A stretch of DNA of 55,746 nucleotides from Patescibacteria group bacterium. GTDB lineage: Bacteria; Patescibacteriota; Saccharimonadia; Saccharimonadales; JANWIN01. Under the pieces are notes generated by a model. The model was not told the origin of the DNA, did no database searches, and saw only the letters and a program-made list of their open reading frames with translations. Numbering within the stretch: the stretch's first letter is position 1; the number at the start of each line of letters is the position of its first letter. A program made the position numbers and the translations under genes. The stretch is taken from assembly GCA_035480855.1 (NCBI GenBank), contig DATIHJ010000026.1, forward strand, positions 1-55,746, in the 5' to 3' direction. This document shows, in pieces, positions 5,794 to 49,581 of the stretch.

Positions 5794-6198
5794 ATGGCAA
5801 CTCAAAATAACACACCAACAGGTTGGGTAGGTTGGGCTTACTTTGCAGGCTTCATGATGATGCTTGTAGGTGGAATGCAGGCAATCGCAGGATTGGCTGC
5901 AATTTTTAAGAGCGGATTTTACGTAGTAAGCCAGAGCCATTTACTGGTACTGGATTACAAGCAATGGGGATGGGTAGCACTTCTGCTAGGCATCATAATC
6001 TTTTTTGCAGGCTTGGAATTGTTCCGCGGCGCACTATGGGCTAGGATTGTAGCCATCATTCTAGTTGGAATGAGCTTCTTGGCTAACATGGCCTTTGTGA
6101 ATGCATACCCAATTTGGGCAATAACAATCATGACTGTTGACGTGTTTGTTATCTACGCACTGCTAGTACATGGCGGTGAGCTACGCGACGACGCTTAG
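5794..6198 (+). CDS. DUF7144-like small integral membrane protein
   Basis: Four hydrophobic helices with GWVGWAYFAGFMMML.G..Q...GL and the ending WAR...AYPIW...VD..VIYAL.VHG. Clear paralog of 49180-49581. Confidence 0.65.
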   Translation: MATQNNTPTGWVGWAYFAGFMMMLVGGMQAIAGLAAIFKSGFYVVSQSHLLVLDYKQWGWVALLLGIIIFFAGLELFRGALWARIVAIILVGMSFLANMAFVNAYPIWAITIMTVDVFVIYALLVHGGELRDDA

Positions 6199-11342: not shown

Positions 11343-13490
11343 ATTCTACCCACCAATACCAGAAACCAGCTGAGAGAAAAATGTGCTGTCTTCGGCGTCT
11401 TTGGAGCTGGTGCAGAAGCTGCTAGAACAACCTTTTATGGCTTGTGGGCATTGCAGCACCGCGGCCAGGAAAGCTCAGGAATAGTCAGTTCTGACGGCAA
11501 GCAACTATTTGGACACACGGGAGCAGGACTAGTAGCCACAGTCTACCGCGAAGAAGATTTGGAACAACTGCCCGGATCAATGGCTATAGGCCATAATCGC
11601 TACTCAACATCGGGTGGCAGCGATAACCGTTACAACCAACCATTTTTAGATTACGATCGCCAATTTGCTTTTGCCCATAACGGTAACCTGCCCGACACCT
11701 CTAAAATAGAGGTGTTTTTGAATAAACGCGGCGTGAAGCTTGATGGGCTAAATGACTCGGCCATGATGTCTGCAGCCATCGGCTGCTATATAGACGATGG
11801 ATTACCGCTAGCTAAAGCTGTTAAAAAAGCTTATCCACTATTTACTGGTGTGTTTTCTGCTGTGGCTATGGACCAAACAACTCTCGTAGCATTCCGGGAT
11901 AGATGTGGAATACGCCCACTTTCTATTGCCAGTCTAGGCAAGGGATATGTAGTAGCCTCAGAAACCTGTGCGTTTGACACCATTGGGGCCACTTTTTTGC
12001 GTGATGTACGGCCTGGTGAATTAGTAGTAGTTAATAATGACGGCTTTACTTCTCACCAAATAGTTCGAGGACAGCAAAAACTTGATATTTTTGAGCTAGT
12101 CTATTTTGCCCGACCAGATAGCTTACTACTAGGCAAGCGTGTCAGCGATGTCCGTAAAAACTTTGGTATACAGATGGCAAAGGAATTCCCAATAGATGCG
12201 GATATAGTTATGCCTGTGCCAGATTCTGGAATACCAGCGGCACTAGGTTACTCGCAAGCTGCGGGACTGAGATTCGAAAACGGGTTAATTAAGAATCGCT
12301 ACATCCACCGTACATTCATTCGACCAACTGCACAGTTGCGCGAACGAGATCTAAAAATGAAGCTAAATCCCGTGATTGAAACTGTACAAGGGCAGCGTGT
12401 TATTTTAGTTGATGATTCAATTGTACGTGGCAGCACTATGCGCCAGGTAGTAACTATGCTCTATGAGGCAGGAGCTAAAGAAGTTCATTTGCTCATAACT
12501 TCCCCTCCTGTGCGTTATCCCGATTTTTATGGAATTAACACTCCTCAGCAATCAGAGCTTATTGCTACCCAAATGAATAATGAAGAGCTGTGTGAATATA
12601 CGGGTGCTACCTCGCTAAACTTTTTGTCTTATAAGGGCATGATAACGGCCACAGGTTTGGCGGCTAGTAAGTTTTCTACTTCTTGTTTTAACGGTATATA
12701 TCCTATTCCAATTGGCAAGCGTGCCAAAGAAATATCTCCCAATTCACTAAAAGATTTTTTACGCAAAAAAGCTCCAACAAAAGCACCAACTAATAATCAA
12801 CCTCGTATAGCCGTTCTGGCTTCTGGTGAGGGCACAACTGCTGAGGCATTTATACGCGCAACCCTGAATGGTCGCATAGGCAGTACCGTAGGTTTAGTTA
12901 TTACAAACCGTAAAAATGCTGGTGTGCTAGAGCGCATAGCCCGGCTTAATAAAAAGTTTGGGCTGAATATTGATTATAAGGTTATTAACGGAATTACTCA
13001 CCCCGCACGAAAAAACGAGCAAGTGGGCCCAGGCGAGCAGACTGCTGCCGAACAAAATGCCATTGCGGCGGCAATTGAAAAAGGCAAGTTTGATTTGGTG
13101 GTTCTAATGGGCTACATGAAGCGGGTAGGCCCAAAACTAGTACAGAACTTTGGTTGGCAACCTAATCATAGCAGTATTTATGAGTCCCGGATGCTCAATA
13201 CCCACCCAGGTTTGCTGCCTGAAACCAAGGGTCTATATGGTGTCTACGTACAAGATCACGTGCTGAACAAACACCTTCCATATGCTGGGCAAACATTGCA
13301 TGTAGTTGCTGAGGAGTACGACCGTGGACCAAAAATTGCCGAACACCGCGTGCACGTAAAGTCCGAAGATACTAATGACAGTCTCTTTAAGCGCGTCAAA
13401 GCAGCCGAAAAACGGTTTTTACCAACAGATATTGACAGCTTTATTCTGGCTCGCCGGAGCTACTTGGGTAAACGTAGCCAGGGAATATAG
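11343..13490 (+). CDS. purF: Fusion protein: amidophosphoribosyltransferase (PurF) + phosphoribosylglycinamide formyltransferase (PurN)
   Basis: PurF part: catalytic-Cys motif KCAVFGVFG, YGLWALQHRGQESSGI, and PRT loop VILVDDSIVRGST. PurN part (from ~12798): IAVLASGEGT, NTHPGLLP, D.GPKI. The track start (TTG 11442) removes the nucleophile Cys at 11382-11384. The frame is open back to 11286 with no ATG/GTG/TTG, so I place the start at ATT 11343, 9 nt after a GAGGG SD. The exact start is uncertain. Confidence 0.85.
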   Translation: MLPTNTRNQLREKCAVFGVFGAGAEAARTTFYGLWALQHRGQESSGIVSSDGKQLFGHTGAGLVATVYREEDLEQLPGSMAIGHNRYSTSGGSDNRYNQPFLDYDRQFAFAHNGNLPDTSKIEVFLNKRGVKLDGLNDSAMMSAAIGCYIDDGLPLAKAVKKAYPLFTGVFSAVAMDQTTLVAFRDRCGIRPLSIASLGKGYVVASETCAFDTIGATFLRDVRPGELVVVNNDGFTSHQIVRGQQKLDIFELVYFARPDSLLLGKRVSDVRKNFGIQMAKEFPIDADIVMPVPDSGIPAALGYSQAAGLRFENGLIKNRYIHRTFIRPTAQLRERDLKMKLNPVIETVQGQRVILVDDSIVRGSTMRQVVTMLYEAGAKEVHLLITSPPVRYPDFYGINTPQQSELIATQMNNEELCEYTGATSLNFLSYKGMITATGLAASKFSTSCFNGIYPIPIGKRAKEISPNSLKDFLRKKAPTKAPTNNQPRIAVLASGEGTTAEAFIRATLNGRIGSTVGLVITNRKNAGVLERIARLNKKFGLNIDYKVINGITHPARKNEQVGPGEQTAAEQNAIAAAIEKGKFDLVVLMGYMKRVGPKLVQNFGWQPNHSSIYESRMLNTHPGLLPETKGLYGVYVQDHVLNKHLPYAGQTLHVVAEEYDRGPKIAEHRVHVKSEDTNDSLFKRVKAAEKRFLPTDIDSFILARRSYLGKRSQGI

Positions 13491-13491
13491 G

Positions 13492-14769
13492 GTGAGTCAA
13501 AAAGTTTTGGTAATTGGTGGTGGCGCCCGCGAGCAAGCCCTAGCCTGGAAGCTGGCCCAATCGTCCAAAGTAGATAAAGTTTTTGTTGCCCCGGGCAATG
13601 GTGGTAGCAACGGGATAATTGAAAACGTGGATATTGCATTTGATGATGTAGCCAGTCTGTTGAAGTTTGCTCAAGAGAACAAGATTGACCTTACAGTAGT
13701 AGGCCAGGAGGCCGCCTCGGCTGCGGGTGCGGTTGATGCTTTCAATGCGGCCGGAATGACTATTTTTGGACCGTCTAAGGCTGCAGTAAGAATTGAAACT
13801 TCCAAAACGTTCTCTAAAGACCTGATGAAGATTGCCAAGATTCCAACGGCAAAATACCAGAATTTTACAAACCCCAGTATGGCGCGGACTTATGCCAAGA
13901 GCCGTCCACTCCCAGTTGTAATAAAGGCTGATGGTCTAGCAACTGGTAAGGGTGTAATTATTGCGAGTAGTGCTAGTGAAATTGATGCTGCGATTGATGA
14001 GATTATGGTCAATAAGGCTTTTGGCGATTCTGGTAATAAGGTAGTTGTAGAAGATTTTCTGAAGGGACAGGAAGCCTCTATGCATGCACTTTGTGATGGT
14101 ACTCGAACTGTCATGTTTCCTCCGTCACAGGACCACAAACAAGTTTTTGACGGTGACAAGGGACCAAACACAGGTGGTATGGGTGCGTTCGCTCCCGTGG
14201 ACTGGATTTCAGGTGCAGATACTAAATTTGTTAAGGAGCATGCAGTAATACCGGCTTTGGAAGCCTTAAAACAAGATGGAGCCGAGTTTAGAGGCTGTCT
14301 ATACCCAGGGCTTATGATTGACGGTAATGCTATCAAGCTTTTGGAATTTAATGCTCGCTTTGGTGACCCAGAGGCAGAAGTCTACATGCGCCTATTAGAT
14401 GGTGACTTGTATGATATTTTGAAGGCCTGTGCAAACGGCAAACTTAATCCAGCTAATGTAAAATGGAAGGCTGGCTATGCAGTTAGTGTAGTTTTAGCAT
14501 CGCCCGGATATCCAGGAACATATCCTAAAAGTCTTCCAATTACAGGTATTGATGATGCCCAGAAACTTAAAGATATAGTTGTTTTTCATGCTGGAACCGC
14601 CCTAAAAAATGGCAATCTTGTTACAAGCGGTGGACGCGTACTAAACGTTACAGCTTATGGTTCGACACTTAGCAATGCATTAGATAAGGCCTACAGAGCT
14701 ATTAAATTGATTCACTTTGAAGGTATGCACTACCGCACCGACATAGGACGTAGATCCTTAAAGTTGTAG
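13492..14769 (+). CDS. purD: Phosphoribosylamine-glycine ligase
   Basis: VLVIGGGAREQALAWKL, PGNGG, an ATP-grasp core, and NARFGDPE. GTG 13492 follows the purF/N stop by 1 nt. The longer track ORF overlaps purF/N in another frame. Confidence 0.92.
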   Translation: MSQKVLVIGGGAREQALAWKLAQSSKVDKVFVAPGNGGSNGIIENVDIAFDDVASLLKFAQENKIDLTVVGQEAASAAGAVDAFNAAGMTIFGPSKAAVRIETSKTFSKDLMKIAKIPTAKYQNFTNPSMARTYAKSRPLPVVIKADGLATGKGVIIASSASEIDAAIDEIMVNKAFGDSGNKVVVEDFLKGQEASMHALCDGTRTVMFPPSQDHKQVFDGDKGPNTGGMGAFAPVDWISGADTKFVKEHAVIPALEALKQDGAEFRGCLYPGLMIDGNAIKLLEFNARFGDPEAEVYMRLLDGDLYDILKACANGKLNPANVKWKAGYAVSVVLASPGYPGTYPKSLPITGIDDAQKLKDIVVFHAGTALKNGNLVTSGGRVLNVTAYGSTLSNALDKAYRAIKLIHFEGMHYRTDIGRRSLKL

Positions 14770-31047: not shown

Positions 31048-31950
31048 CTAACGTCCAAAATAGATACCGCGACTGGTTAGATTAAGGCCTAACAGTTGGC
31101 TTACTGTTACGAGACGGTATTTGCTTTTTAGGTCGGTAACGATTTTATCAACCGCTGCCGCAGTTAGTGGTTTATCGTGCATAACTATAATGCCTCCTGG
31201 CTTGGCCTGGGACTCTACAATTTGGGCTACGGCGTTTGGGTCTTTTTGTGCCCAGTCTTTGGGGTCAACATTCCACATGATAATGGGCATGTTTATACGA
31301 CTAGCAATGGCCTCGTTTATTGACCCGTACGGTGGGCGAAGTAGATACGGTGCCGGCACACCAATAGCCGCAATCGCAGCCTGTGTCATATCAACTTGCT
31401 GCTGGACTTGGGCAGCTGGAATTTTAGTAAAATCTGGATGTGTCCAACTATGGTTACCAATATCACTGCCATCAGCATGAATCCTCTGCAAAATTGCTGC
31501 ACTTGGAGCAACTTTGTAGCCAAGTACAAAAAAGCTAGCGTGAACTTGAGCCTTTTCCAACGCACTTAGGATTATTGGAGTTGAGTCAGCATTAGGGCCG
31601 TCATCAAATGTTAGAGCCAAGCACTGTTCGACCTGGCAATCTGCCGGAGGTGGCGGGGGTGGAGTAGCTAACTTTTGGAGCAAAAAGGTTGATAGATTGT
31701 CTTGTTCTGGTGTAAGTTCTTGCTCTAGTTTTGAGACTGTCTTTAGATTGTCTGTCTGTTTTGCGCTAGATACTGTGATGTGCCTAACAGAAGTTGCACC
31801 AACTTGGCGGTGAACCTGTATATCTACTACCATTAGCACACCTATTATCAATGCCGCCAGCATACCTAAGTAAGCCTGCCCAAAATGTTTTGAGCGATAA
31901 GCAGCTTTTACCCGGTTATCCCATAACTCGGGCGTATTTACTATCCTCAC
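31048..31950 (-). CDS. Membrane-anchored polysaccharide (peptidoglycan) deacetylase, CE4 family
   Basis: N-terminal TM, a poly-Pro linker (PPPPPP), then NodB motifs TFDDGP, HSWTHP and LRPPYG. GTG start. Confidence 0.85.
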   Translation of the reverse strand: MRIVNTPELWDNRVKAAYRSKHFGQAYLGMLAALIIGVLMVVDIQVHRQVGATSVRHITVSSAKQTDNLKTVSKLEQELTPEQDNLSTFLLQKLATPPPPPPADCQVEQCLALTFDDGPNADSTPIILSALEKAQVHASFFVLGYKVAPSAAILQRIHADGSDIGNHSWTHPDFTKIPAAQVQQQVDMTQAAIAAIGVPAPYLLRPPYGSINEAIASRINMPIIMWNVDPKDWAQKDPNAVAQIVESQAKPGGIIVMHDKPLTAAAVDKIVTDLKSKYRLVTVSQLLGLNLTSRGIYFGR

Positions 31951-31994: not shown

Positions 31995-33020
31995 CTAGAG
32001 ATGTCTGAGTTTTCGGCGCGCCGTTTCGAACACAAACGTAGCCGGATATTTAATAGGGCTAATGATTAGATCCCGGGCAGGCAAGTAGGCCACATCTTCA
32101 CCACCAAAGCCACGCTTAAAGATGGAGACTCCATGAAAGCGGTGTTTAGTCTGTCCGTGTTCTGTAACACCCCAGAAGTTATAGCGAGTACAGCCACGAC
32201 GGCGGGCTTCACTAATTGCCTGCCACTGTATAGCATAGGCACCAGGAAACTCCCGTGCCAGCTCAGTACTAGCACCATAATGATAGGCTGCCTCTTTCCC
32301 GTAAAATATTACAAAAGCCATAGCCAGAAGCTTGCCTTGATGAGTTGAGCGGTATAGCAATACTTTATCTACCTCAGCAAAAGTCTTGAACTGTTCAGTC
32401 AAAAACTTCTTAGAAAAAGGCACAAAATTTTGCCGTTTGGCGGTTTCCATCTGTAACTGGCAAAACTCTTCTATATAGCTATCGTCTTTGCTGGCCTCTA
32501 CTTTTATGTCAAGCTTCTGGGCACGGTTTAGTTCATAACGTGTGCCCTTACGCATCATCTTTCTTAATTCGTCATCAGGTTTTGTCAAATCTAGCTGGCT
32601 AGTAAGGTCTGCAGTTACATGCATAGGTGATTTGTGAAATCCAAGTTTTTTAAAAAGCTGGCTATTCTGGGGATTATCCAATAGTTGAGGTCTTACCCTA
32701 ACAAATAAGCAATTGTTTGCATGGGCAACACGGCGAATAGTCTCTACCCAAGAAGTTATTAACTGTGAGTTTTGCCAGTCTATTATTGGTCCACCAGCCA
32801 CTACCAAATGGCGGCCGCGTCGGGCAGGCTCAACTACTGCTTGGACAACACCAACAAGCATATTGCCATCATAAAAACCATGGCGCTCCACAGTGTGGCC
32901 GAGACGCTGGTGGAACACGCCCCAGTACCAGGAATGCAAGAAGTTGGCCTCAGGTCGCTGGGCCAAAAACCCTTCCCATTCATCTTTATTGTCTACTATT
33001 TTGGTTGTGATTTGAGCCAT
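31995..33020 (-). CDS. FemAB-family aminoacyl-tRNA-dependent peptidoglycan branch-peptide transferase
   Basis: FLHSWYWG..........G.......GV.Q........R.L....GP, C-terminal YHYGAS.......GAYA.QW.AI..A...G...Y.FWG. Overall FemX/FemA-like length of 341 aa. Confidence 0.85.
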   Translation of the reverse strand: MAQITTKIVDNKDEWEGFLAQRPEANFLHSWYWGVFHQRLGHTVERHGFYDGNMLVGVVQAVVEPARRGRHLVVAGGPIIDWQNSQLITSWVETIRRVAHANNCLFVRVRPQLLDNPQNSQLFKKLGFHKSPMHVTADLTSQLDLTKPDDELRKMMRKGTRYELNRAQKLDIKVEASKDDSYIEEFCQLQMETAKRQNFVPFSKKFLTEQFKTFAEVDKVLLYRSTHQGKLLAMAFVIFYGKEAAYHYGASTELAREFPGAYAIQWQAISEARRRGCTRYNFWGVTEHGQTKHRFHGVSIFKRGFGGEDVAYLPARDLIISPIKYPATFVFETARRKLRHL

Positions 33021-34189
33021 TCGTTCACCTTTATTGCTATAAGTTTTGCTTTTTCGCCAGTTACATGGACATGAGTAGGTAAGTTAACTATATGCTTAGA
33101 CAATTCCTCCGCATTTGGGCAAGTACCAGCCTTGTAATCCGTTTTAGCTAAATATTTTATGGGTCCTATTGGCGCATCATACCAAGTATCTCCAATATGT
33201 ATGCCGTCCTTCCTTAGGTAGCTAACCAGTGAGTCCCGCTGGTCAACCCAAATAGGAAAACGCAAGTAAGTAGGTATGCCAGCTGGTTGGATTGATCTCA
33301 ATTGGGCTGGAAGTTGCTCATTATAAATAGCTGCTATCTCACGCCTATGGGCAAGCTCAGTTGCAAGTTGTTGCCAGCGCTGCAAAATTAAGCCCGCAGT
33401 AGAACTGCTCATTTGATGCAAGCCTTCCAGGTCATCACTCATTGGCGTGGCCATTAGGTTAAGTTTCTTGAGTATAAAGTGCACATAACGGCCCAGGCCT
33501 ATAGGGTATGTGCCACGTATAATAGCTGTCCAGAAAGGATACATGCGATTTTTAAGTCGTTGGCTGCTGCCAATTATGGGCAATTCGCTAGCCGGTTGTG
33601 CCGCTTGTCCTCGTCTGTCAATCATGGCACCACCAGCCACTACGTCGAGCGGCTTATCTTGGCTAAAAGACAGCATGGAAAATGCGCCTACTGTGCCAGC
33701 TTCGCGCCCATCCAGGTAAGTAAGCCCAGTGCTATGGGCCAGATCCTCAATAAGTAAAATAGCTGATTGTTGGCAATAGGCAGCAATGCTTTGCATGTCA
33801 GCGGGATATCCTAGTGTATTTTGTATTATTAGTGCCTTGATCTCTGGATGTTTAGCGTGGGCATGCTTTAGCTCTGTGATGCCAAAGTTTAGTTGGCCCG
33901 GCATAACGTCTATTGGCAGGCTTTTGTAGCCGGCATTTTCTACCGCTTTATAAACCGCATAGCATGTAAAGCCATTGATGCCTACCACACTACCAGCAGG
34001 TAATCCGCTGGCTTTCAGCGCAATCTCTAAAGCCTCCCTGCCCTTGTATGTTAGGATTGCCTGCCCGCCATAATGTTGCCCGAGGAGTTGAGCTAACTTG
34101 ATGTTTGAATCTTTGGATCCGCGTGCAAATAAATGTTGCCAAACATCTTTACTTAAATAGTTAGATCCTAGTGAGTTAAAAATGGCCAT
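32996..34189 (-). CDS. DegT/DnrJ/EryC1/StrS-family PLP-dependent aminotransferase
   Basis: The fold-type I sugar aminotransferase pattern includes the PLP-lysine region SFSQDKPL, and EDLAHS. It overlaps the upstream gene by ATGA and femAB by 25 nt. Confidence 0.85.
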   Translation of the reverse strand: MAIFNSLGSNYLSKDVWQHLFARGSKDSNIKLAQLLGQHYGGQAILTYKGREALEIALKASGLPAGSVVGINGFTCYAVYKAVENAGYKSLPIDVMPGQLNFGITELKHAHAKHPEIKALIIQNTLGYPADMQSIAAYCQQSAILLIEDLAHSTGLTYLDGREAGTVGAFSMLSFSQDKPLDVVAGGAMIDRRGQAAQPASELPIIGSSQRLKNRMYPFWTAIIRGTYPIGLGRYVHFILKKLNLMATPMSDDLEGLHQMSSSTAGLILQRWQQLATELAHRREIAAIYNEQLPAQLRSIQPAGIPTYLRFPIWVDQRDSLVSYLRKDGIHIGDTWYDAPIGPIKYLAKTDYKAGTCPNAEELSKHIVNLPTHVHVTGEKAKLIAIKVNEWLKSQPK

Positions 34190-34878
34190 CAGTTATCCAA
34201 GGCTTTCACAATTATTTCTGCCACTCTATCTGGGTGATTAAAAAATGGTGCATGGCGGGCATCATCAACAATGTTCAGGCTTGAGCCGGCTATACCTGCA
34301 TGGATTTTTTTGCCATCGTCCAGTGGTGTGATGCTGTCTTCCCTACCCCAAATAATCGTAACCGGTAATTTGACGAGGCTAAAATCTATCTTTTGGTCGG
34401 CAGCCAGCATGTTTCGCATTGTCTCCTTCATATTTGGCGGAGCATTGTTATAGTCCTGGGCACCAATAATTTTATAAAAAGCTTTTTTAATAGGTGGAAC
34501 GTGCGACAGGCCTTTTCCTACTTTGGATAAGTACTTCAGTGTTTTGAGTTTTATAGCGGCTTTAGTTTCGTTATGAGCCACACCGGCACTATCAATAAGT
34601 ATTAGTTGGTCCAGTTTGCCTGGATATTTTTGAACATAAGATAATGCAATTCTTCCGCCGTTGGAGTGACCTATGACTACTGGGTTTGGGGTATCCTTAA
34701 TTTTGCCATCAAGCCAACCTATGTAGCCATCTATGTCCCATACTTTGTCACTAGGCTCAGTTAGCCCAGGCACTTTTAGAAGCACGGGCTCAATTCCGCG
34801 CTTTTTTAGCTCATCTTGTAGTCCAGTCCACTTGTCTAGGTTATACGTCCAGCCGTGAATTATAAAAACCTGTTTCAC
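34189..34878 (-). CDS. Alpha/beta-fold hydrolase
   Basis: VFIIHGW, nucleophile elbow GHSNGG, and C-terminal D..H. GTG 34878 overlaps the MurF-like stop as GTGA. TTG 34893 in the track is less likely. Confidence 0.8.
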   Translation of the reverse strand: MKQVFIIHGWTYNLDKWTGLQDELKKRGIEPVLLKVPGLTEPSDKVWDIDGYIGWLDGKIKDTPNPVVIGHSNGGRIALSYVQKYPGKLDQLILIDSAGVAHNETKAAIKLKTLKYLSKVGKGLSHVPPIKKAFYKIIGAQDYNNAPPNMKETMRNMLAADQKIDFSLVKLPVTIIWGREDSITPLDDGKKIHAGIAGSSLNIVDDARHAPFFNHPDRVAEIIVKALDN

Positions 34879-36155
34879 CTTGGTAACCCCCAAGCTTGGC
34901 GACGTTTAGTCCATGTAGTGCCCCGGCGTACTAGCTGCTTTGCATCCTTTGGATCGGCCAGGAGTTGCTCAATCACACCCTCGAGCCCCTGCGCACCTTT
35001 AAATAATATAGTTTCGCCTCCCTTCAATTCTTTTTGCAGATAATCTAAGACTTCCCCAGCTAGCACAAAGCTTACTACCGTGCCTTCAGGTAGCTTATCT
35101 TTTAGGGTGGGATAGGAGTATTCGTGTGTGCGCTTACCAAGTAACACAACCCTGTCCACACTTATTTTGCTTATTTCCTCGGCAAGTCGTTTGTGTTCAT
35201 CGCTCTCTAAACTTCCCTGCTCTAAAATGTCTGCTATCACCAGCCATTTATGCTCTGCAGGATACGCTTTATATAGTTCCAGAATCGCCTTTACAGCCCC
35301 GAGCCCATTGTTGTAGGTACTATCAATAATTGTAGTGTTTTTTATGCCTTTTAAAATATTACTCCGCCCGGGAGGTAATTTTAGCTGGGTATAGCTTGTT
35401 TCAGATGGGAGATCAAAGTATTTGGTTAACTCACTTATCATCTGAAGACCAATTCCTACCTCTTTAGGGTGCAGACCTGGTACAGTAAATTTTTGGCCGC
35501 CAATTGTAAATATAGTTTGACTGGAAGTTAGCTCATAGTTTGTTACCGCTTTTGTAGACAACTGCTTGACTTCCACCCCTCTTTTGGCCCGTGCAAGTTC
35601 TCGTACCAGTTCTGGTTGGTCGCCATTGGCTAGCACTAGCTTAGTGGTGGCAGCTACAAAATCACTAAACTCTTTGGCAATTGCTGCTTCGTGAGAAGGA
35701 AATGTGCCGTTTTTGACAAGACTATCAAAGTTCATGCTATGTGTGTGCGAAAGGCTAACCCAAATTGTAACCTCTGGTTTTAAAAAGTTGGCAATAAAAT
35801 TCCCCTCATGAGGACGGTCACTATCTGCCTCAACCACATAGAGTTTTTGTGGCGGCAGGCTGCGGAATATGTTAAATGGAGCAGCGACCAAACGCACTAA
35901 CCAATCAGCCTTGGAGCTCACATTTGGCTCCATACCCAGGACATGAAATGGGATGCCTATGGCGCTATTAGCATGATGGCTATAGATTGCTTGTGTACCC
36001 ATCTGTGCTTCTGCTATGTGTAGTACGCTAGTTTTGCCACTGCTGCCAGTTATAACAACAATGCGTGGTTTCCAACGTCGTAAAACAAATTTAGCCCAAA
36101 AGGCAAAATAAGCAGCAACTACAAAGTACAGGCGCTTTTTAAGCGTATGAAGCAT
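34875..36155 (-). CDS. Mur ligase family protein, MurF-like but lacking the MurF N-terminal domain
   Basis: P-loop ITGSSGKTS about 35 aa from the N-terminus after a hydrophobic segment, DSTYNN (compare MurF DxxYNANP), and ADILEQG..S...H (compare GDMLELG). Confidence 0.8.
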   Translation of the reverse strand: MLHTLKKRLYFVVAAYFAFWAKFVLRRWKPRIVVITGSSGKTSVLHIAEAQMGTQAIYSHHANSAIGIPFHVLGMEPNVSSKADWLVRLVAAPFNIFRSLPPQKLYVVEADSDRPHEGNFIANFLKPEVTIWVSLSHTHSMNFDSLVKNGTFPSHEAAIAKEFSDFVAATTKLVLANGDQPELVRELARAKRGVEVKQLSTKAVTNYELTSSQTIFTIGGQKFTVPGLHPKEVGIGLQMISELTKYFDLPSETSYTQLKLPPGRSNILKGIKNTTIIDSTYNNGLGAVKAILELYKAYPAEHKWLVIADILEQGSLESDEHKRLAEEISKISVDRVVLLGKRTHEYSYPTLKDKLPEGTVVSFVLAGEVLDYLQKELKGGETILFKGAQGLEGVIEQLLADPKDAKQLVRRGTTWTKRRQAWGLPR

Positions 36156-36200: not shown

Positions 36201-36230
36201 TTAAAAAAGCTCCGGCTAAAGCAGGAGCTT
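36201..36230 (-). terminator. Intrinsic terminator (minus strand) after the minihelix, before the Mur-ligase operon
   Basis: The minus strand reads AAGCTCC-t-GC-ttta-GC-c-GGAGCTT followed by TTTTTTAATCC. Confidence 0.65.
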
Positions 36231-36240
36231 CAAAATTTAC

Positions 36241-36277
36241 TGGTGGAGCAATTGTAGGCGTAAACCTACAATGCCCC
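36241..36277 (-). ncRNA. tRNA-Ala-like acceptor-arm minihelix with encoded ACCA end
   Basis: The minus strand is GGGGCATTGTAGGTTTACGCCTACAATTGCTCCACCA. It folds as G1-C33, G2-C32, G3:U31, G4-C30, C5-G29, A6-U28, a U27 bulge, seven further pairs and a 6-nt loop, ending in single-stranded ACCA. The first 9 nt and last 10 nt are identical to tRNA-Ala(GGC) at 37274-37350. Expression has not been shown. Confidence 0.5.
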
Positions 36278-36328
36278 ATAGCAAATGTATAGTAACAAAC
36301 AAATAAGCGATGTAAAAGACTGGCCGTA

Positions 36329-37243
36329 TTAGCGAATATTTTGAACTTTACTTTGCAGCTGAGCTAAAGGAATAGTCTGGGTTGGCACCGAAATCGGTTG
36401 CTCTTGTCCCTGGGAGCTATATGTCTGGCTCTGTCCACCATCAGGATACGACACCTTAACCAACTGACGGGATACTTTATCCACCGTGAATTCGGCTTTA
36501 AGAGGCTGGCTACCGTTATATTGGCTTGGGTCAAGCCCTATATCGCCAAGGCCTATATCTTTTACGAACTGCTGAAGCATACTAATGTATGCTTTAGGGT
36601 TAATGTTAACCGTATATACAAACACTTGACGCCCAGATTGTTTAACACTTTTAGCAGGCTCAGAAGTAATGGTATATACGTTGTTGTTCTTTATTAAATT
36701 AATCAGGTCATGGCGCGGGCCACTGGCCAAGTTAGCATATGGCACAATACCTAGTAAGCTCTGCTGCAAATATTGTATGGGTGGTCTTTGGCCTTTTTTA
36801 GCATCTGGGGTTTTGCCCCACACTCCAATAATTTGGGCAGTATTTAACGGCTTGCCCTGGGCGTTTTTTTGATCAGTCTTGATAGCAACATAACGACTAT
36901 AGTCATTGTCTTTTGTACCGATGGTTTCGGACTTTACCACCGCATGGCTGCCACTAATATTCTGGCTTATGGTCACTACGTTTCGAGCCGCGTTTACAGC
37001 ACCTAGTTGCAACTGTATGTACTGATCTGTTGTCTGTCCCGCAGCGGTTTGGGTTGTGTGGCGAGTGATGCTTTCTGTAGCCAAGTTATTGCTTATCATG
37101 CCCCAAAAGACATTTTCTGAACTGGTATACACCTTGCTCCACCATAGCCAGCCACCGCCGATAATACCAGCAATCACCAGAATAATTAGCCACCTGAAAG
37201 CAGCTTTCTTATCTATACTAATGCTCTCTTCCGCCTTGGACAT
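36329..37243 (-). CDS. Hypothetical N-terminally anchored extracytoplasmic protein
   Basis: A single TM (WLIILVIAGIIGGGWLWW), then a ~260-aa polar domain with no recognised family. Confidence 0.6.
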   Translation of the reverse strand: MSKAEESISIDKKAAFRWLIILVIAGIIGGGWLWWSKVYTSSENVFWGMISNNLATESITRHTTQTAAGQTTDQYIQLQLGAVNAARNVVTISQNISGSHAVVKSETIGTKDNDYSRYVAIKTDQKNAQGKPLNTAQIIGVWGKTPDAKKGQRPPIQYLQQSLLGIVPYANLASGPRHDLINLIKNNNVYTITSEPAKSVKQSGRQVFVYTVNINPKAYISMLQQFVKDIGLGDIGLDPSQYNGSQPLKAEFTVDKVSRQLVKVSYPDGGQSQTYSSQGQEQPISVPTQTIPLAQLQSKVQNIR

Positions 37244-37273: not shown

Positions 37274-37350
37274 TGGTGGAGCATGAGGGATTCGAACCCT
37301 CGACCTCTTGCCTGCCAGGCAAGCGCGCTAGCCAACTGCGCCAATGCCCC
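37274..37350 (-). tRNA. tRNA-Ala (anticodon GGC), CCA encoded
   Basis: Manual fold: GGGGCAT/ATGCTCC acceptor with G3:U70, D-arm GCGC-AGTTGGCTA-GCGC, anticodon arm CTTGC-CTGGCAG-GCAAG, T-arm GAGGG-TTCGAAT-CCCTC, A73, CCA. Confidence 0.95.
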
Positions 37351-37378: not shown

Positions 37379-37678
37379 TTAGGCTCGTTTACTAGTTCTA
37401 GTTCCCCGGCCTCTTTGCCTGACAATCTGACGCCTCTCAAAAGATGTTCGTCCGCCACGTATACCTTCTTTTTCGCGACTTGCAATGGCCCACTCCAAAC
37501 ATTCAACCTGGACACGACAAAGATCACATATTGCTTTAGCTTCTTTTATTGCCGGCGAGTCCTGCTCTGCTTTATCGTTTTCTCCCTCAGGGAAAAACAC
37601 ATCTGGATCAACTCCAAGACAACGGCCACGTGAAACTATTGAATTTAACCCGTTATCTACCATGCTATTAGACTCCAT
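37379..37678 (-). CDS. whiB: WhiB-like (Wbl) Fe-S transcription factor
   Basis: Four Cys in the Wbl arrangement C-x(n)-C-x2-C-x5-C (GRC...AICDLCRVQVEC), a G-I-R-G-G turn (compare GVWGG), and a basic C-terminal tail. Start is ATG 37678 or ATG 37663. Confidence 0.85.
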   Translation of the reverse strand: MESNSMVDNGLNSIVSRGRCLGVDPDVFFPEGENDKAEQDSPAIKEAKAICDLCRVQVECLEWAIASREKEGIRGGRTSFERRQIVRQRGRGTRTSKRA

Positions 37679-37730: not shown

Positions 37731-37806
37731 TGGTGGAGTCGGGGAGACTTGAACTCCCTACCTCAGCAATGCGAATGCTGCGCTCTACCAGGTGAGCTAC
37801 GACCCC
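37731..37806 (-). tRNA. tRNA-Ala (anticodon CGC), CCA encoded
   Basis: GGGGTCG/CGACTCC acceptor with G3:U70, D-arm GCTC-ACCTGGTA-GAGC, anticodon arm CAGCA-TTCGCAT-TGCTG, T-arm GGGAG-TTCAAGT-CTCCC, A73, CCA. Confidence 0.95.
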
Positions 37807-38022: not shown

Positions 38023-38937
38023 ATGTACACTGTTGAGGCTGGAAGTATTCCTGTTCCCGCTATTGAATTTATTGATGATAAACCTAACAGACCCGGATTC
38101 AGGTCTGGGACTGTAAAGCGTTTTGCCGGTGTGATTGCGCTCACTCTTGTTGCAAATTTAGCTGCGTGTAGTGCAGATAAAAAAGTTACCCCTGCAAAAG
38201 TCAAACCTACAATTACCAATTCTCAGACAACAACTACAATAAGGCCAACAATAGTCGCAGAGCCCCGCACTTCTGGCTATAACTCAGAGCATTTTATACA
38301 AGCTGGTGCTGCACAGTATGGTTTGCAGGCTTCAGGTGCTAGTGTAGAACTGGATCAGACAAAACCAAAAGTAAATCGTATTGACGAACATTCCCTGATG
38401 GAACTTGCCGTTGAGTCTGCAGATGGTAGGCAGGCTGTAGAAGTGGGCTGGATTAAGTCAGATACAGATCCCAGTACGCCTCCCAAACTATTTGTTTATC
38501 ACTGGGTTGATGGTAAACCTGCATGCTATGATGGCTGCGGATTTGTACCTGAGTCAAATGGGCACTTTGCAGTTGGAGATCCTGTTGAAGTAGGAACAAC
38601 TGGGAGATATGCTATAGAGTACTCAAAAATTGGCTGGACAGTAGATTATAACGGCTATGGACTAGGGCATTTTCCAGAAAAGTTATGGAAGAATTTTAAA
38701 AAAGTTGGATTGGTTCAAGCTTTTGGAGAAGTTGCCTCATCTTCATTAAAACCTTGCACTGATATGGGGAATGGTAAATTTGGAAGCTCGTCCGGTTCTG
38801 CTAAAATCAAATACTTTAAGTTAAATAATTCAGATACACCCGTTTCATTTCAACCTTTTGAAATATATCCAAGTCTTTATAATGTTGGATTTGCGACACC
38901 TACAAGCGTGAATATTGGTGGCCCGGGTGCATGCTAA
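38023..38937 (+). CDS. Lipoprotein with neprosin-like (DUF239) glutamic-peptidase domain
   Basis: Lipobox LVANLAAC. The domain pattern SLMELAV.S.DG...VEVGW.......P.LFVYHW.DG...CYDGCGFV......AVGD.V......Y.IEY....W.V.YNG..LGHFPEKLW........VQAFGEV matches plant and bacterial neprosin, including both candidate catalytic Glu positions (VEVGW, FGEV). Confidence 0.6.
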   Translation: MYTVEAGSIPVPAIEFIDDKPNRPGFRSGTVKRFAGVIALTLVANLAACSADKKVTPAKVKPTITNSQTTTTIRPTIVAEPRTSGYNSEHFIQAGAAQYGLQASGASVELDQTKPKVNRIDEHSLMELAVESADGRQAVEVGWIKSDTDPSTPPKLFVYHWVDGKPACYDGCGFVPESNGHFAVGDPVEVGTTGRYAIEYSKIGWTVDYNGYGLGHFPEKLWKNFKKVGLVQAFGEVASSSLKPCTDMGNGKFGSSSGSAKIKYFKLNNSDTPVSFQPFEIYPSLYNVGFATPTSVNIGGPGAC

Positions 38938-49179: not shown

Positions 49180-49581
49180 TTAACTGTCTTTAAGTTCAGC
49201 TCCGTGAACAACAAGCGCATGAATAACCACTACATCGATGGTGATGACTATAACTGACCAAATTGGATATGCACTTATAAATGCCAGAGCACCAATTGCG
49301 CTCAATACTGCAAGGACAACACCAACAATCCGCGCCCAAGTAGAGCCGTGAAGCACAGAGAAACCAGCCATTAATACTAGAAAACCGATGGCAAGATCTA
49401 TCCAACCCCAGGCAGGATAGTTAAATACTAGTAGATTGCTAGAAGTTACTGCGTACCAAGTGGGTCGTAGCAATGATGTTAGACCAGCGAGAACTTGGAA
49501 AAATCCTGACATGATCATCATGATACCTGCAAAGAAAATCCAACCAACTCCCTTGCTTAGTTCTTTGTTATTAGTAGCCAC
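49180..49581 (-). CDS. DUF7144-like small integral membrane protein (paralog of 5794-6198)
   Basis: It aligns end to end with 5794-6198 (GVGWIFFAGIMMIM.G..Q.LAGL...; WARIV...L...S......AYPIW...I.T.DV.VI.AL.VHG.EL.D). GTG start 9 nt after GGAGGG. Confidence 0.65.
   Translation of the reverse strand: MATNNKELSKGVGWIFFAGIMMIMSGFFQVLAGLTSLLRPTWYAVTSSNLLVFNYPAWGWIDLAIGFLVLMAGFSVLHGSTWARIVGVVLAVLSAIGALAFISAYPIWSVIVITIDVVVIHALVVHGAELKDS

Follow-up and report, generated by a model that had tools for sequence, protein, structure and literature searches.

A tRNA-Ala-like minihelix encoded in a Saccharimonadales contig

We analysed a stretch of 55,746 nucleotides (nt) from a Patescibacteria group bacterium of the order Saccharimonadales (GenBank assembly GCA_035480855.1, contig DATIHJ010000026.1), which we call the window and which is part of the chromosome of a metagenome-assembled genome. 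Its minus strand contains, at positions 36277..36241, the 37-nt sequence GGGGCATTGTAGGTTTACGCCTACAATTGCTCCACCA, which is predicted to form a minihelix: a single hairpin ending like the acceptor stem of an alanine tRNA. The element lies between a gene for a membrane-anchored hypothetical protein and a cassette of four genes, which begins with a MurF-like Mur ligase and ends with an aminoacyl-tRNA-dependent transferase of the FemAB family.

In RNAfold, the element folds into 6 bp, one bulged U, 8 bp (the last of them a U·G) and a 4-nt UUAC loop, leaving the ACCA end unpaired. This agrees with the hairpin with single-stranded ACCA proposed in the first-pass annotation, which was made from the sequence alone; the 7 bp and 6-nt loop given there are the same helix minus the closing U·G. 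The fold energy is −20.3 kcal/mol (z = −5.92 against dinucleotide shuffles), a value equalled by none of 200 shuffles. The acceptor stem has 6 bp (G1-C72, G2-C71, G3·U70, G4-C69, C5-G68 and A6-U67) and is followed by A73 and an encoded CCA, so that the retention of G2:C71, G3:U70, G4:C69 and A73, already pointed out in that annotation, is evident from both sequence and fold. The two ends of the element thus pair into an acceptor stem, with a discriminator base and CCA on its 3′ side, and this 37-nt single hairpin is devoid of a D arm, of an arm with a 7-nt anticodon loop and of a T arm with its T loop.

The designation of 36241..36277 (minus strand) as a mature minihelix RNA of 37 nt is based on its sequence, on RNAfold, on the covariation seen in its family and on our covariance model R1, which scores it at 37 bits (E = 2e-7). 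The pattern GGGGCATTG-N(5-35)-TGCTCCACCA has a single match in the window, with 0 expected by chance. ARAGORN called four tRNAs and no transfer-messenger RNA (tmRNA) in the window, leaving the minihelix uncalled, and Rfam, including the tRNA model RF00005, retrieved nothing for the element even at E <= 10.

Minihelices form a family in soil and freshwater Saccharibacteria

Relatives were sampled as loci around homologues of the MurF-like protein, obtained from contigs of one genome per species (L002-L081) and from metagenomes (L082-L161), and the fetched loci were searched for minihelices with a regular expression and folding scan plus model R1. We found minihelices of 34–38 nt in 24 further loci (L002-L011, L016, L040, L082-L092 and L106), representing 19 distinct sequences, in soil and freshwater Saccharibacteria (Saccharimonadales). 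Among the retrieved relatives, all those with a MurF-like protein sharing 57% identity or more with that of the window had the minihelix; L093 and L094 (55–56% identity) have no upstream DNA and are outside this presence/absence count. When a longer form of 59–63 nt (see below) is included, the family comprises 31 related loci, 25 distinct sequences and at least 20 species.

The sequence of the window minihelix is 100% identical in L083, L084, L085 and L106, where the 60-nt flanks show 50–68% identity and the MurF-like proteins 65–68%. Across the family, the loops vary freely in sequence (for instance UUAC, GCAA, GAAA, UAU or CUUAAA) and in length, from 3 to 6 nt, with no T-loop motif, and many members contain internal loops or bulges at helix steps 7–11.

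Several weak matches to the model or the regular expression were discarded as chance hits. Those in L042 (9512-9564), L115 (9407-9461) and L070 (7766-7820) are AT-rich, fold weakly and run antisense in DegT or FemAB genes, and that in L092 (507-550) is within a coding region. Likewise, a hairpin-plus-NCCA scan for other amino acid identities near the cassette in distant Patescibacteria produced only scattered matches inside coding regions.

A 59–63-nt relative with the shape of a small cloverleaf

A second form of the RNA, first seen as weak R1 matches of intermediate length, occurs in seven loci with six distinct sequences, identified with models R1 and R2. These mini-cloverleaves measure 59 nt (L047:3646-3704 and L071:6870-6928, both plus strand), 60 nt (L024:287-346 and L037:5598-5657, both plus) or 63 nt (L028:3615-3677, plus; L064:5676-5738, plus; and L052:6854-6916, minus). 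Their acceptor stem has 7 bp, GGGGC(A/C)C / G(U/G)GCUCC, with G3·U70, A73 and CCA, and it surrounds three short hairpins. The middle one, at the position of the anticodon arm, is capped by a tetraloop (CUUG, GCAA, UCAC, UUUG or UUUU), and hence there is no anticodon. Model R2 scored the seven loci at 73–83 bits and the minihelices at 19–31 bits, and found no additional members. Rfam did not call the mini-cloverleaf as a tRNA or as any other family at E <= 1, and it was also uncalled by ARAGORN.

Both forms share promoter type and locus position, and among the fetched loci none contained the two of them. The third hairpin of the mini-cloverleaf has the inner-stem sequence of the minihelices; for example, GTAGGTTACACCTAC is found in both L028 and L086. 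The stem-loop between the ends of the window element, which had initially been considered unrelated to tRNA, therefore has a counterpart in the hairpin at the T-arm position of the longer relatives. Because of this match, the 36-nt form is best read as the 60-nt form minus hairpins 1 and 2.

The helix covaries around an invariant alanine identity set

For the minihelices, we replaced a plain MAFFT alignment, in which the 5′ ends were shifted, with a hand-made structural alignment (A4) of the 19 sequences that uses N for gaps. In this alignment, whose structure is thus partly derived from the sequences, 87.8% of the cells are standard pairs and 10 of the 14 pairs show two-sided changes. The covariation score was 0.502, against 0.169 with shuffled partners (0/500 reached the observed score) and at most 0.129 when partners were slid by 1–3 columns. 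Even with alignment by hand, the predicted structure finds support in the control with slid partners and in the pairs changed on both sides. The six mini-cloverleaf sequences were aligned with MAFFT and given an RNAalifold structure (A5); here 98.4% of the cells pair, 10 of the 21 pairs, distributed across all four helices, are doubly changed, and the score was not reached in any of 500 shuffles.

By comparison with pairs 5–14 of the minihelix, which change freely, G1-C72, G2-C71, G3·U70, G4-C69, A73 and CCA are invariant in the 25 distinct sequences of the family. The G3·U70 wobble is kept in 19/19 minihelices and 6/6 mini-cloverleaves, and was never seen replaced by G-C or A-U. The comparison of related genomes in search of compensatory changes, as suggested in the first-pass annotation, thus gave a helix that covaries and a G3·U70 pair that does not vary. 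The same alanine identity nucleotides are carried by the local tRNA-Ala genes.

The G3·U70 acceptor pair was reportedly defined as a recognition element for alanyl-tRNA synthetase (AlaRS) by Hou and Schimmel in 1988 and by Francklyn and Schimmel in 1989. A wobble that is never repaired amid covarying neighbours is the signature expected for recognition by AlaRS, whose reading of acceptor stems has been reviewed (PMC9976931). We thus consider it likely that the minihelix is alanylated.

The minihelix has the signals of an independent gene

A promoter scan identified, upstream of the window element, a −35 box TTTACA (36316-36311) and an extended −10 box TGtTACTAT (36297-36289), which together occupy 36289..36316 on the minus strand, with 9/12 matches and the TG. 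The motif TGnTAnnnT is found 8–12 nt upstream of G1 in 26 of the 31 related loci. A purine, mostly G, occupies −5, where transcription would begin. In the window, the start would then be the G at 36282, with a 5-nt leader, GCUAU, ending in U(−1), and leaders in the family would have 4–5 nt. Position −1 is U in 30/31 related loci and −2 is A in 28, compared with U(−1) in 21/39 and AU in 6/39 of the tRNA genes from the same loci. The specificity of RNase P is well established and is the basis on which we read this strong preference, which would fit an RNase P substrate without elbow contacts. Separately, in the predicted precursor from the window, UUUGCUA in the leader region (36278-36284) can pair with CAGUAAA from the CCA and trailer (36235-36241, minus strand), lengthening the helix; this may be due to chance.

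At the other end, 10 nt past the CCA, an intrinsic terminator occupies 36203..36231 on the minus strand, consisting of a GAAGCUCC...GGAGCUU hairpin and a U-run. Terminators occur within ca. 40 nt 3′ of the element in at least 12 of the 31 related loci; where there is none, it may share a transcript with the MurF-like gene. In L007, L052, L082 and L106, the element is opposite in strand to both flanking genes. It is therefore neither the 3′ end of the upstream mRNA nor the 5′ leader of the downstream mRNA, and constitutes a gene of its own.

These signals bear on the possibility that the element is a cis-acting, tRNA-like module for the processing or stability of a flanking mRNA, through RNase P cleavage or by stopping 3′ exonucleases. 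Such a role would suit the location in the window, 51 nt past the stop codon of the upstream gene and ahead of the terminator, and the several loci with no terminator between the element and the MurF-like gene. It does not account for a conserved promoter at a fixed distance, nor for the inverted orientation in four loci, nor for L002, L005, L008, L011 and L085, in which the usual upstream gene is distant or absent; besides, a processing signal has no need of strict invariance at G3·U70 and A73. We thus deem it very improbable. The first-pass annotation had left the choice between this 3′ module and a chargeable, non-decoding alanine carrier, and had deduced transcription from the position after the upstream gene. 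The distances to the stop codon and to the terminator were correct, but with a promoter of its own read-through is not needed, and the promoter, the strand changes and the varying upstream gene disfavour the module, whereas the invariant identity set, the covarying helix and the gene signals favour the carrier.

Two other interpretations of the sequence were rejected. A small open reading frame (ORF) starting at the AUG formed by A−2, U−1 and G1 is not maintained, since lengths of 34–38 nt shift the frame and the variation is compensatory in the helix instead of synonymous; in L003 and L004 (ATG/ACG GGG CTN GTG TAG) it stops at codon 5. Nor is the minihelix itself an intrinsic terminator, because its hairpin is followed by ACCA and unrelated sequence, with the separate terminator lying 10 nt further on. 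In all, we have little doubt that we are dealing with a functional gene for a structured RNA.

Relationship with the neighbouring tRNA-Ala genes

The window contains two canonical tRNA-Ala genes close to the element, both on the minus strand and both called by ARAGORN and Rfam: tRNA-Ala(GGC), at 37274..37350, which shares its acceptor identity set and belongs to the likely source family, and tRNA-Ala(CGC), at 37731..37806. As originally reported in the first-pass annotation, the first 9 and last 10 nt of the minihelix are identical to those of tRNA-Ala(GGC). Beyond positions 1–4 and 69–76, this identity is in part a coincidence, because positions 5–9 differ from the local tRNA-Ala genes in other genomes. 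Indeed, within a locus these positions of the element do not track those of the tRNA-Ala acceptor stems, and the element therefore evolves as its own gene. For the same reason, and because the family is old, we rejected a recent deletion of the neighbouring tRNA-Ala(GGC) as the origin of the minihelix. Its resemblance to tRNA-Ala nonetheless makes it likely that the minihelix derives from such a tRNA, of which D arm, anticodon arm and T loop have disappeared.

The ends held in common with the nearby tRNA-Ala(GGC), and the occurrence of tRNA fragments near such clusters (e.g. in L067), could also be expected if the element were a tRNA-Ala pseudogene in decay, the remains of an integration site or a hairpin formed by chance. 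Against decay or chance are the 25 distinct sequences from at least 20 species, with their compensatory changes and invariant identity nucleotides, the 100% conservation amid diverged flanks, the conserved promoter and the chance expectation of 0 for the end pattern. Likewise, an integration remnant is at odds with an acceptor stem that retains its two ends, with the lack of any integrase or direct repeat nearby and with a position kept in at least 20 species. We give these explanations hardly any credence, and the sequence data indicate that the minihelix is a conserved gene family and not a remnant.

The fragment in L067 (4276-4319, plus strand) has 44 nt, ACGGGAT...ATCCTGTACCA, and contains a G3·U70-type acceptor stem, ACCA and a D-arm-like piece. 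It is located between a tRNA-Ala and a tRNA-Pro gene, ca. 280 nt upstream of the MurF-like gene, and is followed by partial repeats of the tRNA-Pro 3′ end (L067:4455-4545). This is perhaps debris of tRNA genes, perhaps a truncated tRNA that stands on its own.

Of the tRNA genes near the cassette, that for tRNA-Ala(GGC) greatly exceeds all others in frequency, being found in 26 of the 80 genome loci, among them loci from Levybacteria and Doudnabacteria that have no mini-RNA; it lies, for instance, within a few kb upstream in L055, L067, L074, L079 and L081. For a given tRNA gene ca. 1 locus would be expected, a rough estimate for 80 loci that are not phylogenetically independent. This enrichment and the linkage would fit a Fem enzyme that uses alanine.

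The minihelix lies next to a Fem transferase cassette

The first cassette gene codes for the MurF-like Mur ligase (34875..36155, minus strand) and starts 85 nt downstream of the element. Its product matches the Pfam domains Mur_ligase_C and Mur_ligase_M and, below cutoff, the NCBIfam murF subfamily, but it contains a hydrophobic N-terminal helix in place of the MurF N-domain, and its match to the PDB structure of MurF (1gg4, 3.6e-12) is limited to the C-terminal domain. It is followed, on the same strand, by genes for an alpha/beta hydrolase (34189..34893), a DegT/DnrJ/EryC1-type aminotransferase (32996..34189) and the FemAB-family transferase (31995..33020; Pfam FemAB, 2.2e-39), the latter 3.2 kb downstream of the element. 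The best PDB matches noted for this transferase include FemA (1lrz, 2.5e-15), FmhB (6snr, 2.9e-14) and FemX from W. viridescens (1ne9/4ii9, 1.6e-5), and it also matches an aminoacyl-tRNA-dependent peptide synthase. A polysaccharide (peptidoglycan-type) deacetylase gene (31048..31950, minus strand) comes after the cassette, and the leucyl-tRNA synthetase (LeuRS) gene follows it in the same-strand row. On the other side of the element, the membrane-anchored hypothetical protein of 304 amino acids (hyp304; 36329..37243, minus strand), with no family match, is a frequent but not constant upstream neighbour.

The genes of the window are also found on contig CAZLPX010000007.1 of assembly GCA_964561555.1, and the order of the cassette is conserved in Saccharibacteria, Levybacteria, Roizmanbacteria, Gottesmanbacteria and others. 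The literature that we searched contained no account of it. FemAB is present in every locus that extends far enough and is the best-conserved cassette protein, with 65–75% identity among the closest relatives. Many contigs containing the cassette (L006, L023, L029, L030, L032, L037, L042-L046 and others) are titled as Gammaproteobacteria, Chlamydiae or Actinomycetes, and are probably mis-binned or mislabelled metagenome-assembled genomes.

The donor of Fem enzymes is an aminoacyl-tRNA, whose acceptor end gives up the amino acid; because of this, FemAB stands out as the only gene nearby for whose product a charged acceptor helix would be of obvious use. The element was upstream of the cassette in the 31 related loci, in 27 of them at 8–130 nt from the start of the MurF-like gene and in the other four (L010, L024, L037 and L064) at 1.3–2.5 kb.

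A number of observations weigh against a functional tie between the element and the cassette. Sampling was anchored on the MurF-like protein, so that their co-localization is partly built in; synteny is also generally kept in the region, where hyp304, the tRNA-Ala genes and LeuRS tend to stay together, and the adjacency may result from local duplication of tRNA-Ala and not from function. In L010 and L064, where genes are inserted between element and cassette, the former has remained adjacent to the hyp304 homologue, and in L024 and L037 a gene for a hyp304-like membrane protein lies between them. The cassette is, moreover, widespread in Patescibacteria that show no element within 4.5–7 kb; the cassette thus exists without it, and the element is therefore not required for the cassette. 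Finally, the first-pass annotation regarded absence or free mutation of the element in close relatives as evidence against its proposal: the identity bases never vary, but within the retrieved sequence the minihelix is absent from L012-L015 (MurF-like identity of 54–56%) and from L050.

These same facts leave room for a minihelix that is alanylated and consumed elsewhere in the genome by another aminoacyl-tRNA-dependent enzyme, such as an aminoacyl transferase for lipids or proteins, or a peptide synthase, its position being an accident. The invariant alanine identity set fits this equally well, local duplication could explain the position given that tRNA-Ala genes lie 1–3.5 kb away in most loci, and many lineages have the cassette without the element. 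On the other hand, in 27 of the 31 loci no more than 130 nt separate element and cassette, while the tRNA-Ala genes change place and orientation, and we found no other aminoacyl-tRNA-using enzyme among the proteins of the 55.7-kb window, the remainder of which are ordinary housekeeping functions. A consumer located elsewhere is accordingly unlikely, and that the Fem enzyme of the cassette is the user of the minihelix seems to us evenly poised.

A proposed alanine carrier for the Fem transferase

Our working model is as follows. The extended −10 promoter of the element would give rise to an RNA with a ca. 5-nt leader, and this RNA would be trimmed at G1, probably by RNase P, and at the encoded CCA. 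AlaRS would then charge it with alanine through G3·U70, A73, G2-C71, G1-C72 and G4-C69. With no anticodon or elbow it could not decode, and it would presumably be excluded from EF-Tu and the ribosome. The Ala-minihelix could then act as aminoacyl donor to the Fem transferase of the cassette, with the outcome that a cell-envelope pathway would receive alanine separately from translation. Aminoacylated minihelices can, however, bind EF-Tu in vitro, so that escape from this factor is not guaranteed, which also speaks against the model; we speculate that the bulges at steps 7–11, where the T stem of a tRNA meets EF-Tu, might weaken this binding.

Published biochemistry makes both the charging and the use by a Fem enzyme plausible. 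Synthetic tRNA-Ala minihelices of 35 and 36 nt, a 24-nt microhelix and an acceptor-stem duplex allow UDP-MurNAc-hexapeptide to be made in a coupled assay with AlaRS and FemX from W. viridescens (Villet et al. 2007, PMC2175331). FemX reads mainly G2-C71 (PMC2655667), a pair that is invariant in our family. In Staphylococcus aureus, FmhB prefers separate, non-proteogenic tRNA-Gly species that are poor ligands of EF-Tu, and for the proteogenic Gly-tRNA it is in competition with EF-Tu (PMC7826273). We hold it an open wager, with neither side favoured, that AlaRS charges the minihelix, that decoding is impossible and that the cassette Fem enzyme uses it.

The conservation of alanine identity would be equally expected from a regulatory or titrating decoy, which would sense or buffer AlaRS, alanine, RNase P or EF-Tu with no donation of alanine. 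Alanine minihelices expressed artificially in Escherichia coli reportedly affected growth in the work of Hipps and Schimmel in 1995, which would point to an interaction with AlaRS in vivo. A decoy of this kind is nevertheless doubtful: the loops vary freely and there is no conserved target-pairing region, the mRNA of the MurF-like gene has almost no leader to regulate, and the invariant CCA and A73 are better suited to a substrate that is actually charged.

Comparison with other tRNA-like RNAs

A close analogue of our RNAs is the synthetic minihelix-Ala, reportedly described by Francklyn and Schimmel in 1989. Both are single hairpins of matching size (34–38 nt) with a G3·U70 acceptor stem, A73 and a single-stranded ACCA, and the 13–14 helical steps of the natural element are comparable to the 12-bp acceptor/T stack. 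In contrast to the synthetic RNAs, obtained as deletion constructs of a tRNA, the minihelix is encoded in genomes, conserved and endowed with its own promoter, and it has a loop of 3–6 nt and, in many members, internal loops or bulges. With canonical tRNA-Ala (RF00005) it has in common acceptor pairs 1–4, the discriminator base and a CCA that is encoded, and their genes adjoin, but it has no D arm, anticodon arm or T loop, and the mini-cloverleaf has a tetraloop instead of an anticodon loop.

The logic that we propose resembles that of the non-proteogenic tRNA-Gly of S. aureus, which supplies FmhB, FemA and FemB (PMC7826273): an extra gene derived from a tRNA would provide for a Fem transferase apart from translation. 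The staphylococcal species is a full-length cloverleaf with an anticodon and glycine identity that escapes EF-Tu through changes in the T stem, whereas here the body is deleted, the identity is that of alanine and the function is deduced from context. Indeed, the cassette-anchored loci show the association with a Fem-family transferase gene and not a full-length tRNA body with its anticodon.

The tRNA-like domain of tmRNA (SsrA) is a known natural alanine acceptor without anticodon; it is charged by AlaRS, has G3·U70, A73 and CCA and shares G3·U70 and GGGG...CUCCACCA ends with our RNAs (PMC3985003). This raises the question of whether the element is a minimal tmRNA-like or otherwise ribosome-directed RNA charged with alanine. 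Yet tmRNA has ca. 350 nt, a T arm, pseudoknots and a reading frame for the tag, and acts on the ribosome with SmpB, and none of these parts, including an mRNA-like domain or a T loop, is present in RNAs of 34–63 nt; 37 nt are too few for a tag reading frame. Likewise, ARAGORN called no tmRNA and the Rfam tmRNA models did not match the element. We judge this possibility slighter still than that of a cis-acting module. MascRNA-type elements, tRNA-linked repeats and viral tRNA-like structures are also non-decoding mimics of tRNA and possible RNase P substrates, but these reside in larger RNAs and are defined by their host transcript, whereas the minihelix has its own promoter, often its own terminator and an independent orientation.

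Both forms are absent from Rfam 15. The statement in the first-pass annotation that no bacterial chromosomal gene for such a minihelix had been described is in agreement with our searches of full-text literature, Rfam and ARAGORN, which are not proof of its absence from the literature. The RNAs can thus be viewed as putative tRNA-derived aminoacyl carriers for non-ribosomal transfer, with an architecture for which we found no described natural precedent.

Other features of the window

Among the remaining genes of the window, a 682-amino acid ORF at 11442-13490 (plus strand) contains glutamine amidotransferase, phosphoribosyltransferase (PurF-like) and formyltransferase (PurN-like) domains, and resembles a fusion of PurF with PurN; the start listed for the next ORF, PurD (13375-14769), falls within it. 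Between the two tRNA-Ala genes there is a gene for a WhiB-family transcription factor (37379-37678, minus strand); WhiB proteins are typical of Actinobacteria, the usual hosts of cultivated Saccharibacteria. A 304-amino acid protein with a Neprosin domain (Pfam PF03080, 2e-12) is encoded at 38023-38937 (plus strand), divergent from the tRNA-Ala(CGC) region. Finally, two paralogous DUF7144 genes, at 5794-6198 (plus) and 49180-49581 (minus), are 43 kb apart.

Significance

The alanine minihelix has served for 35 years as a laboratory construct, from which it has been argued that the acceptor stem alone can carry the identity of a tRNA and that the acceptor/T half may once have functioned by itself. 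We tentatively propose, with somewhat less than even confidence, that in these bacteria a tRNA has been cut to its acceptor half, is charged through the 'operational code' of the acceptor stem and is used only by a Fem-type transferase, never by the ribosome, which would make it the first natural minihelix aminoacyl carrier. As part of the same proposal, the genomes would preserve a stepwise series from tRNA to mini-cloverleaf to minihelix.

These RNAs were overlooked by ARAGORN and Rfam, and the A4 and A5 alignments with their two covariance models now define a new searchable family. They also assign a testable donor, and hence a likely amino acid, alanine, to a four-gene cassette that is widespread in Patescibacteria. 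If the proposal is true, cells actually use the minimal minihelix form, and the aminoacyl pools for the envelope and for translation would be naturally separated in a manner that extends beyond the non-proteogenic tRNA-Gly of staphylococci.

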